A DNA stretch of 64,000 bases from Candidatus Palauibacter poriticola (GTDB lineage Bacteria > Gemmatimonadota > Gemmatimonadetes > Palauibacterales > Palauibacteraceae). Below, piece after piece: positions 27,150 through 28,764 of the stretch. Position 1 is the first letter of the stretch. Each line of letters starts with the position of its first letter. The position numbers and the translations under genes were made by a program. Location: the NCBI GenBank assembly GCA_012270965.1, contig JAAXHJ010000044.1, positions 18,311-82,310 on the forward strand, read 5' to 3'. The notes beneath the pieces are model-generated. The model searched no databases and was not told where the DNA came from. It was given only the letters and a program-made list of their open reading frames with translations.

Positions 27150-27186
27150 CAGACGCAGCCGCCCGGCATCAGACGCAGCCGCCCGC
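27147..27186. repeat. Perfect 20-bp tandem duplication (catcagacgcagccgcccgg, twice) spanning the mogA stop and the regulator start.
   Basis: Read directly. On the minus strand it gives TGATG twice, with a 6-codon mini-ORF (MPGGCV) between the two genes. Confidence 0.85.
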
Positions 27187-28760
27187 AGACGCGTGGCCGG
27201 TATCGCCGCGCAGCAGATCGACGGCATGGTCGACCACGGACTCGAGAGCGGCGAGCCCGTCGGAGACGCCGCCCGGACTCCCGGGCAGGTTGATGACGAG
27301 CGTCTCGCCGCGGACTCCCGCCAGCCCGCGGCTGAGCGCCGCGTACGGCGTGGACTCGGCGCCGGTGCGGCGCAGCATCTCGGCGATCCCCGGCGCGCGG
27401 CGCTCGAGGATGGTGCGCGTCGCCTCGGGCGTCACGTCGCGCGCCGCAAGCCCGGTTCCGCCCGTCGTGAGAACGACGTCCACCCCCTGCACGTCGCACC
27501 AGTGCAGGAGGCGGGCGGCGATCTCGGCGCTCTCGTCAGGGATGACATCGGCGCCGGCCAGCGAGTAGGCGCGCCCCCGAATCCACTTCTTGATGAGATC
27601 CCCGGAACCGTCTTCCCGCTCTCCGGCGGACACGCGGTCGGAGATGGTCACGACGGCGATCCGCGGGGCGATGCGGTGCAGCGAGCCGCGCGGATAGAAG
27701 GGCGGACGCACGACCTCGGCCGCGATCGCCTTCCCCCGGATCATGATCTCGACCGCGGCGCCGAACCCGGCGGCGACGGGCAGGTACGCGGTCGCGATCC
27801 CGTGCCCCATGGAGGGGCTCACGGTGCCGCTGCGCACCTCGCCAACGGCCTCCCCCTCGAAGCGGACCTCGTAACCCGGCCGCGGGAAGCCCCGATCGAG
27901 CAGTCTCAGGAAGCGCAGCCTGCGGGTGAGGCCGGCGGCGCGCTGCGCGGCGAGGGCCTCCGAGCCCACAAAGTCGCCCTTGCCGTGCTTCACGAGCCAC
28001 CCGAGTCCGGCCTCGAGCGCAGTCGTCTCATCGTCCACGTCGTTTCCGTAGAGCGCGTAGCCCATCTCGAGCCTAAGCGAGTCGCGGGCCCCCAGACCCG
28101 CGGGGACGGCGCCGGCCTCGACGAGCACCCGCCACGCCGGCGCCGCATACGCCTTCGGCATGTAGAGTTCGAACCCGATCTCCCCCGTGTAACCGGTCCG
28201 GCTGATCACGCACGGCGCGCCCGCGACCTCCCCGCGCACGAAGTGGTAGTAGTCGATCTCCGCCAGCGGCTGGTCGGTCAGCGGCGCGAGCGTCCTCTCC
28301 GCCAACGGACCCTGGAGGGCGAGGAGGGCGATCTCGTCGCTCTCGTCCGTCATTTCCACGTCGAAGCCCCGCGCGAGCCTGCCGAGGTGCGCCCAGTCCT
28401 TGGCCATGTTGGCCGCGTTCACGACGAGCCGGTAATCCGCCTCGCCCATGCAGTAGACGATGAGGTCGTCGATGACGCCGCCGGTCTCGTGGCACATCGC
28501 GCTGTACTGGGCGTCCCCATCCCGCAGGCGAGAGGGGTCGTTCGTCGTCGCGTAGGCCACGAACGCCTGCGCGTCCTCACCGCGGACGCGGAACTCTCCC
28601 ATGTGGGAGACGTCGAACAGGCCCGCCTTCTCGCGCACGGCACGGTGTTCGGCCCTGATGCCGGTCGGATACTGAACGGGCATCGCGTAGCCGGCGAAGG
28701 GAACGATCTTGCCGCCCAACCGGACGTGTTCCTCGAATAGCGGGGTCGCTTTCAGGTCTT

Positions 28761-28764
<4 letters not shown>
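27169..28764 (-). CDS. gcvT: Glycine-cleavage T protein (aminomethyltransferase) joined in-frame, with no stop, to a MogA/MoaB molybdopterin adenylyltransferase domain.
   Basis: GTG start gives [32 protein letters not shown]. GcvT runs to ...[11 protein letters not shown], then [22 protein letters not shown]...TTGGTG...INLPGSPGG, which is MogA-like. There is no stop between them in this sequence. Confidence 0.7.

Follow-up and report, generated by a model that had tools for sequence, protein, structure and literature searches.

An in-frame gcvT::mogA gene, probably a genuine lineage-specific fusion, in Candidatus Palauibacter

Can a glycine cleavage enzyme and an enzyme of molybdenum cofactor (Moco) synthesis be parts of one and the same bacterial protein? 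The question is raised by an open reading frame (ORF), gcvT::mogA, on the minus strand of a 64,000-nt stretch of DNA from Candidatus Palauibacter poriticola (Gemmatimonadota; GenBank assembly GCA_012270965.1, contig JAAXHJ010000044.1, positions 18,311 to 82,310), referred to below as the window. GcvT, the T-protein of glycine cleavage, is an aminomethyltransferase that depends on tetrahydrofolate (THF) and converts the aminomethyl group carried by the lipoyl-H-protein to NH3 and 5,10-methylene-THF; domains of the MogA/MoaB type adenylate molybdopterin, after which MoeA inserts molybdenum. The first-pass annotation of the window had read the ORF as an apparent in-frame GcvT-MogA/MoaB fusion, and this reading is borne out by our analysis: its coordinates and the peptides that it quoted are exact, the fused protein is conserved in ten protein clusters, and both halves are under purifying selection. 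We conclude that gcvT::mogA is probably a genuine lineage-specific fusion gene, encoding one bifunctional polypeptide in which GcvT and MogA would act independently. The mechanism of its origin is resolved, and functional coupling of the two enzymes is unsupported.

A single reading frame covers gcvT and mogA

The fused gene and its parts are as follows.

27169..28764, minus strand: fused gcvT::mogA ORF, recognised from the ORF and its sequence, from three Pfam domains in order, and from 100% identity to protein cluster P0001, with nine other fused clusters
28764-28762 and 27171-27169, minus strand: GTG start and TGA stop codons of the fused gene
28761..28764, minus strand: GTGA overlap, seen in the sequence, between the stop codon of argF (TGA 28763-28761) and the start codon of gcvT (GTG 28764-28762)
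27673..28764, minus strand: GcvT module (aminomethyltransferase, glycine cleavage T-protein), residues 1-364, from Pfam, NCBIfam and the alignment to 1WOO
About 27997-28737 and about 27694-27924, minus strand: Pfam domains GCV_T and GCV_T_C, respectively
27658..27687, minus strand: fusion junction G360-S-L-H-R364, I365-A-P367, R368-I369, from DNA and protein comparison with the unfused loci L001 and L003
27670-27672 and 27658-27660, minus strand: ATC codons of I365 and I369, at positions that hold ATG codons in unfused L001
27169..27663, minus strand: MogA/MoaB-type molybdopterin adenylyltransferase module, residues 368-531 and the stop codon, from Pfam, TIGR00177 and structure alignments
About 27244-27657, minus strand: Pfam domain MoCF_biosynth, with the IPDE (D410) and D443 motifs within it

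gcvT::mogA is a single uninterrupted ORF of 531 codons followed by a TGA stop. On the minus strand the frame is open from 29013 to 27169, and the biologically sensible start within it is the GTG at 28764, which has a GGGAG Shine-Dalgarno sequence 7 nt on its 5′ side; the N-terminal start point (MKDLKETPLFEEH) is common to all orthologues. The start codon overlaps by 4 nt the stop codon of the upstream gene argF, encoding ornithine carbamoyltransferase (GGGAGCGGCTTCGTGAAAGAC), and the same overlap is found between the called genes of four related loci (L087, L088, L089 and L006), indicating that argF and gcvT are likely to be translationally coupled. A Pfam search of the product returned GCV_T (E 6.6e-93), GCV_T_C (1.2e-17) and MoCF_biosynth (1.2e-27), in this order.

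The two modules meet at 27658-27687, where the DNA reads GGC TCG CTG CAC CGC ATC GCC CCG CGG ATC. There is neither a stop codon nor a change of frame here, exactly as the first-pass annotation had stated. R364 is the final residue of GcvT in the unfused relatives, and alignment to solved structures sets the linker at the three residues I365-A366-P367: the Thermotoga maritima T-protein aligns up to R364 (residue 362 of its 364) and the Thermus thermophilus MoaB from R368 (its residue 3).

Both modules are complete members of their families

The N-terminal half passes the full-length GcvT family models above their curated cut-offs (NF001567, 439.9 bits against 300; TIGR00528, 365.4 bits against 235.85), with model positions 1-361/362 covered. 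Query residues 4-364 match chain residues 1-362 of 364 of the T. maritima T-protein (1WOO, E 3.8e-94), and 1WOO, 1YX2, 1VLO and 3A8I all align over approximately 355-361 residues, PF01571 being followed by PF08669 collinearly with the solved T-proteins. The match to stand-alone GcvT proteins such as those of T. maritima (1WOO) and Escherichia coli (1VLO/3A8I) is thus collinear and full-length, with both GCV_T and GCV_T_C shared; unlike these proteins, the window protein continues from the normal C-terminus directly into a MogA/MoaB domain, without the T-protein stop. D99/D100, the Asp residues of the G-G-x-x-D-D motif, and R227 are invariant in all aligned fused and unfused relatives; going by the T. 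maritima and human structures, we take them to be catalytic or THF-binding residues. Genes for the H, P and L partners of the glycine cleavage system are absent from the 64-kb window, and gcvH (K02437) and gcvP (K00281, K00282, K00283) are present in most Palauibacterales metagenome-assembled genomes (MAGs), according to a KEGG Orthology (KO) table that was made with KofamScan and in which one protein may carry several KOs (PMC10469786 Table S3).

The C-terminal half is a member of the MogA/MoaB family by PF00994 (96.8 bits, cut-off 26.6) and TIGR00177 molyb_syn (110.1 bits, cut-off 85.35). It scores below the cut-offs of the equivalog models NF006932 for MogA (127.3 against 158 bits) and TIGR02667 for proteobacterial MoaB (94.4 against 222.4), as well as of NF002947 for MoaC/MoaB (165.5 against 285), of which only the MoaB half is matched, this being the best NCBIfam match of the domain (E 1.7e-48). 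Given these scores, we file the domain only at the level of the MogA/MoaB family, at which NCBI also names the free-standing orthologues. Among solved structures, T. thermophilus MoaB (2IS8) matches with an E-value of 6e-43, aligned from the first strand, and Cnx1G, gephyrin G and Mog structures match as well. The motifs IPD410, TTGGTG, RDVTPEAT (with D443) and NLPGSP are all present and align with the same motifs of 2IS8 and Cnx1G, the catalytic motifs thus being those of T. thermophilus MoaB; D410, T434-G438 and R442-T449 are invariant in all twelve fused sequences recovered (the clusters P0011 and P0012 discussed below included). The two Asp residues D410 and D443 are 33 residues apart, a spacing shared with D49/D82 of E. 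coli MogA, to which they are presumably equivalent.

At 68-71% identity, the C-terminal half is directly orthologous to the MogA that neighbouring lineages encode as a separate protein. In sister Gemmatimonadota, MogA (P0275 of L001 and P0277 of L003) is encoded at the same position, directly after gcvT, and carries the same catalytic motifs; unlike these free proteins, the window domain has no start of its own, the ancestral N-terminus MTPPPRM- having become -IAPRI-, continuous with GcvT. Covalent fusion of the MogA/G domain is also tolerated in gephyrin (G-E), plant Cnx1 (E-G) and MoaC/MoaB (NF002947), in the latter two on its N-terminal side, but there the partner is an enzyme of the Moco pathway and the intermediate is channelled, whereas the partner in the window protein comes from an unrelated pathway.

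No gene for MoaA, MoaC, MoaD/E, MoeA or MobA was found in the 64-kb window, and MoaA, MoaC, MoaE, MoeA and MobA (K03639, K03637, K03635, K03750, K03752) are recorded for most Palauibacterales MAGs (PMC10469786 Table S3). The sole other window gene possibly related to Moco (or thiamine) synthesis lies within 54070-55941 on the plus strand and adjoins the gene for ribulose-phosphate 3-epimerase; the domains of its product, at ORF residues 212-614, are those of an adenylyltransferase of the ThiF family and, C-terminal to it, a rhodanese, as in sulfur-carrier activating enzymes of the MoeB/MoeZ/ThiF type.

The fusion is conserved in Candidatus Palauibacter

A search of 5.8 billion proteins, clustered at 90% identity, recovered twelve clusters with GCV_T, GCV_T_C and MoCF_biosynth in one protein of 529-539 aa. 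P0001 is identical to the window protein and P0002-P0010 are 65-89% identical to it; the named records come from Ca. P. soopunensis and other Ca. Palauibacter, a marine and sponge-associated lineage, and NCBI labels some of them 'GcvT [Candidatus Palauibacter sp.]'. Members of the fused clusters are encoded on contigs of 3.07, 3.42, 3.80, 3.98 and 4.03 Mb and were recovered from NCBI, ENA, JGI and Logan assemblies of several studies. The junction GSLHR-IAPR-IAVVT is essentially invariant in P0001-P0009 and reads GSLVR-IAPR-FAVLT in P0010. Ratios of non-synonymous to synonymous substitution rates (dN/dS; pairwise, by the Nei-Gojobori method) between fused orthologues lie at 0.13-0.17 in the part encoding GcvT and at 0.16-0.24 in that encoding MogA, next to 0.14 and 0.19, respectively, for one unfused pair; both halves are under purifying selection. 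The GC content of the window is 69.1%, and that of sponge-associated Palauibacter MAGs is approximately 69% (PMC10469786). The P0003 cluster, whose representative has 529 aa, also lists many 305-aa ornithine carbamoyltransferases, the products of the upstream gene; this looks like a clustering artefact, so the member count of the cluster cannot be read as a count of fusion proteins.

The two remaining clusters were rejected as independent fusions. In P0012 (L005, 1636-3249), the true end of GcvT, PPFYTGGSVRKS*, lies in another frame after a TTT/TTTT homopolymer, the signature of a 1-nt deletion, and the contig also has a split σ54 gene. P0011 (L004, 8001-9617) is a singleton whose contig has both topA and hslU split, and the relatives of P0011 at 77-87% identity are all unfused GcvTs of 369 aa. 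Judging by these features, both are probable indel artefacts. In two further loci, L007 and L014, gcvT and mogA share a frame but are separated by a stop, and these were likewise discarded. The L005 contig also carries a molybdopterin-oxidoreductase / 4Fe-4S / NrfD gene set (5900-10909), situated 2.6 kb 3′ of gcvT-mogA.

Origin by a net gain of one nucleotide at an ATGA overlap

The nearest unfused relatives, P0013 (locus L001) and P0020 (locus L003), are 73-75% identical to the window protein in GcvT. At both loci gcvT (364 aa) is a gene distinct from mogA (173 or 217 aa), and the two have a 4-nt ATGA overlap, in which the gcvT TGA overlaps the mogA ATG (CGATGACC). In L001, gcvT ends with GGG TCG CTG AAG CGA TGA (GSLKR*) and mogA begins, in the -1 frame, with ATG ACC CCT CCA CCG CGC ATG GCC GTT CTC ACC (MTPPPRMAVLTVSD); the window equivalent is GGC TCG CTG CAC CGC ATC GCC CCG CGG ATC GCC GTC GTG ACC. 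Compared with L001, both ATG positions are now occupied by ATC (Ile) and two Pro codons are gone, a 6-nt deletion. The fusion thus corresponds to a net gain of 1 nt within the overlap, through which the gcvT stop was lost and mogA was brought into frame. This change (CG ATG ACC to CGC ATC GCC) is placed in the common ancestor of the Ca. Palauibacter group, with a later decay of the former mogA start codons to Ile codons. Orthologues with separate genes and a conserved stop at this position had been named in the first-pass annotation as evidence against a fusion. They do exist, in L001 and L003 (with the TGA/ATG overlap and mogA in the other frame), but these two loci lie outside the fused clade and there are none inside it; separate genes with a stop in these two relatives therefore show how the fusion arose and do not refute it.

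In the tree that neighbour joining (200 bootstraps) gave for the GcvT part, P0001-P0009 form a clade with a bootstrap of 96.5, P0010 is its long-branched sister (bootstrap 58), and the unfused P0013-P0033 group adjoins; P0011 and P0012 sit in a separate, Longimicrobiales-like clade. Together with the shared IAPR junction, the tree indicates what appears to be a single fusion event.

Other fusions of GcvT

The fusion is unusual, as the first-pass annotation had supposed; searching databases for GcvT-MogA fusions was among the checks that it proposed. When a profile built from all twelve fused sequences was compared with 1.84 billion representative proteins at 50% identity, no second GcvT-MoCF_biosynth lineage was present among the best 150 matches. 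The long matches were scanned for other partners. Fusion architectures were seen in P0128, P0142, P0160, P0146, P0221, P0215 and P0151, comprising HemD-GcvT (three separate 50% clusters), GcvT-GcvP (P0146, 822 aa, matched in two stretches), FolD-GcvT, peptidase C26/GATase-GcvT and DinB/MDMPI-GcvT; P0182 (492 aa) has no extra Pfam domain. HemD, an apparently unrelated partner, has been fused to GcvT repeatedly. Fusion of GcvT with a neighbour is thus recurrent, with partners that are related (GcvP, FolD) or unrelated (HemD, DinB); unlike the window protein, none of these has a MoCF_biosynth partner, and the partner is N-terminal to GcvT in all but GcvT-GcvP.

Gene neighbourhood

The gene order of the window, aroC-aroK-topA-xerC-hslV-hslU-argF-gcvT-mogA-σ54 activator, is identical in L001 and L003, and the synteny is kept in L006, L087, L088 and L089. 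The last gene in this order is

25461..27149, minus strand: σ54-dependent transcriptional activator (Sigma54_activat, AAA_lid_14, HTH_8), the counterpart of the gene at 11616-13304 in L087 and the same 3′ neighbour in relatives

How far the gcvT-mogA adjacency extends was surveyed with one genome per GTDB species (Palauibacter genomes not included): 80 gcvT loci among the matches listed, 19 of Gemmatimonadota and 61 of other phyla, were re-analysed by tblastn and frame tracing. Among these listed loci, mogA lies directly 3′ of gcvT in 13 of the 19 from Gemmatimonadota, at spacings from a 4-nt overlap to approximately 120 nt and always with the gcvT stop present, and 1.5 kb away in one further locus; in other phyla, mogA follows gcvT in 0 of the 61. 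The hslU-argF pair upstream of gcvT is kept even in Gemmatimonadota that have no mogA there (L010, L015, L022, L023). Since hslU-argF is conserved too, the gcvT-mogA adjacency belongs to a larger unit: the pair does not stand alone but is a phylum-specific part of a frozen block of housekeeping genes.

One polypeptide or two, and the structure model

No conserved start codon with a Shine-Dalgarno sequence was found near the junction in the fused orthologues. Both ancestral ATG codons have been lost in every one of them, with ATC in their place. Of the two GTG codons that come into question, V352 has a GAGG just 2 nt upstream, which is too close, and its position reads CTG ACT in L006; V372 falls within the first β-strand (β1), and its codon lacks a Shine-Dalgarno sequence.

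An AlphaFold2 monomer model computed from a 12-sequence alignment is of moderate quality, with a mean predicted local distance difference test score (pLDDT) of 73.5, a predicted template modelling score (pTM) of 0.53 and a pLDDT below 50 for residues 355-365. The model contains no confident inter-domain interface or packing, and in it the folds appear as two distinct bodies connected by a flexible tether.

Competing explanations

The explanation that we favour, and hold to be probable, is that of a genuine fusion gene. GcvT would be joined to MogA via about three residues plus the flexible C-terminal tail of GcvT, and the protein would be made only as the fusion. The MogA part would keep its usual trimer and would thereby display three T-protein modules, the two activities running independently of each other. 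Such a fusion may have been retained as a harmless, 1:1 co-expression of two genes that were already translationally coupled, without their pathways being linked. On the whole it looks like an accidental merger of overlapping gene ends and not like a new pathway. The Palauibacterales KO table records at most one copy of K03831 (MogA) per MAG, which is consistent with the fusion being the sole source of MogA, although the count is MAG-derived and the table columns are not matched to individual genomes (PMC10469786 Table S3). Several further points weigh against this explanation. In L006, and in that one orthologue only, a GTG at V363 has a GAGG 7 nt upstream and is a plausible start, and some additional free MogA may arise from internal initiation or proteolysis. 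A linker of three residues is very short and may hinder MogA trimerisation and H-protein docking, and the model is only moderate. The tight coupling of gcvT and mogA across the phylum, at spacings between -4 and +120 nt, may be the sign of an unseen functional link. Finally, the weak placement of P0010 (bootstrap 58) leaves some room for two fusion events or a fission.

That the fusion is an artefact, a missed stop or a 1-nt assembly indel joining two overlapping genes, deserves almost no credence. An ancestral overlap of 4 nt does mean that a single-base error would fuse the ORFs, and this has apparently happened in the singletons P0011 and P0012, but the identical junction recurs in ten protein clusters, drawn from numerous assemblies that are independent of one another and differ in technology, contigs of 3-4 Mb among them. 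It has also acquired further, adaptive-looking changes (two ATG codons turned into ATC and the 6-nt deletion relative to L001), and dN/dS is low on both sides of it. Because the open junction is conserved across independent assemblies, we reject the missed-stop or frameshift reading for the window. Internal initiation, which the first-pass annotation had given as the only alternative to a fusion, is one form of a broader proposal, in which the ORF is continuous but two proteins result, MogA being produced from an internal start (GTG at V352 or V372, or a non-canonical codon) or by proteolysis. GenBank calls a 178-aa MogA from the V352 GTG in some Palauibacter MAGs (MDE2944523.1, MDE2879167.1), a GAGG stands just upstream of this codon, and the in-frame aroK-topA ORF of the same window, described below, keeps the GTG of topA, so that continuity of a frame need not abolish a downstream start. 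Nevertheless, the GAGG of V352 is spaced at 2 nt, V352 is not conserved in L006, V372 is buried in a β-strand without a Shine-Dalgarno sequence, and both ancestral ATG codons are gone from every fused orthologue; RefSeq gives a 529-aa protein (WP_310758059.1) on what is apparently the same 65,274-bp contig. Moreover, ribosomes translating gcvT meet no stop, so that the fusion would still be produced even if an internal start were used. Internal initiation is therefore not supported, and we consider production of two proteins unlikely.

A Rosetta-stone reading, by which glycine cleavage and folate one-carbon metabolism are mechanistically tied to Moco synthesis in Gemmatimonadota, whether by co-regulation, by a shared pterin-handling step or by supply of a molybdenum enzyme acting with the glycine cleavage system, appears very unlikely. 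It can draw on the gcvT-to-mogA order, with an overlap or a very short spacer, across Gemmatimonadota and its absence in the 61 listed loci of other phyla, on the retention of the fusion down to 65% identity, and on the functionally related partners found in several other GcvT fusions (GcvP, FolD). Both GcvT and MogA enzymes bind pterin-type ligands, and this common property speaks for it too. However, the adjacency is but one link in a frozen block of unrelated housekeeping genes (aroC-aroK-topA-xerC-hslVU-argF-gcvT-mogA), L010, L015, L022 and L023 keep hslU-argF-gcvT without mogA, and the fusion has one robust origin, with no convergent case among the best 150 profile matches of the 1.84 billion representatives. 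GcvT is also fused to the unrelated HemD and DinB, and the AlphaFold2 model has no confident inter-domain interface. Literature searches for a gcvT/mogA link or an aminomethyltransferase-MogA fusion found nothing relevant, and the main text of the Palauibacterales paper makes no mention of molybdenum or gcvT (PMC10469786). A glycine cleavage-Moco link is accordingly not supported by context, convergence or literature. A similarly slim chance remains that coupling and fusion reflect a real partnership, with the MogA trimer as a scaffold for three T-proteins or with cross-talk between folate one-carbon metabolism and Moco. Smaller still is the probability that the MogA-like domain no longer takes part in Moco synthesis and has become a trimerisation or regulatory appendage of GcvT, with molybdopterin (MPT) adenylylation left to another protein. 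Some proteins of the MoCF_biosynth fold indeed serve outside Moco synthesis (CinA, the MPTb domain of FAD synthase, MoaB2), which lends this idea some plausibility, as do the equivalog scores below cut-off (NF006932, 127 against 158; TIGR02667, 94 against 222). Against it, D410/D443 do not vary, nor do the motifs TTGGTG, RDVTPEAT and NLPGSP, dN/dS is the same as in the free-standing orthologues, and the domain is directly orthologous to the free MogA of sister genomes; in addition, Palauibacterales MAGs possess MoaA, MoaC, MoaE, MoeA and MobA but never more than one K03831 (PMC10469786 Table S3).

Annotation and significance

Public records name only one of the two functions. In the GenBank MAG records MDE2944523.1, MDE2879167.1 and MDE2663166.1, proteins of 167-178 aa called 'MogA/MoaB family' begin at an internal GTG or TTG within the fused ORF, whereas RefSeq lists a protein of 529-538 aa named simply 'GcvT'. 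The two practices meet on a 65,274-bp contig, apparently the same one in both databases, where MDE2879167.1, called 'MogA/MoaB family', has 178 aa and starts at an internal GTG, and WP_310758059.1 has 529 aa and is named only 'GcvT'. With such single-function names, a name-based reconstruction of pathways in Palauibacter, an abundant group of sponge and sediment symbionts, can wrongly report one function as missing.

Both enzymes are textbook cases, and what is new is their combination in one protein. Its origin can be traced almost to the nucleotide, from +1 nt at an ATGA overlap to the subsequent loss of start codons that had become useless. A stable, selected-looking fusion of two enzymes without a known functional link calls for caution in Rosetta-stone inference, and a normally monomeric T-protein joined through 3 residues to a domain that is trimeric offers a natural test case.

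Other features of the locus

The 3′ end of the fused gene has been altered by a short duplication:

27147..27186, no strand: 20-bp tandem duplication (two copies, 19/20 identical), seen in the sequence and by Tandem Repeats Finder (TRF; period 20, 2.8 copies, 27132-27186)

It spans the stop of the fused gene and the ATG of the σ54 activator, changes the C-terminus from SPGG* to SAGGCV*, separates the fused gene from the activator gene by 17 nt and leaves behind an ORF of 6 codons (MPGGCV*). In L089 and L088 there is a single 20-bp copy, with a TGATG stop/start overlap.

A second merger of reading frames occurs in the same gene block, where a 1060-aa ORF at 32800-35982 (minus strand) encodes shikimate kinase (AroK) and DNA topoisomerase I (TopA). 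Here aroK has no stop and reads via a Lys/Arg/Gln-rich spacer into the GTG start of topA itself (RVERPP-VNLVIVESPAKA), from which topA probably still initiates on its own. The two genes are separate in relatives, by a stop and a 57-nt gap in L088, by a gap in L006 and with a 4-nt overlap in L001, so this merger is specific to the window genome or assembly.

Upstream of the aroC-mogA block, an ordinary type IV pilus cluster occupies 37773-49068 on the minus strand, with genes for the secretin PilQ, PilO, PilN, PilM, a prepilin with an N-methylation motif, a PilC-like T2SSF protein and two T2SSE ATPases.

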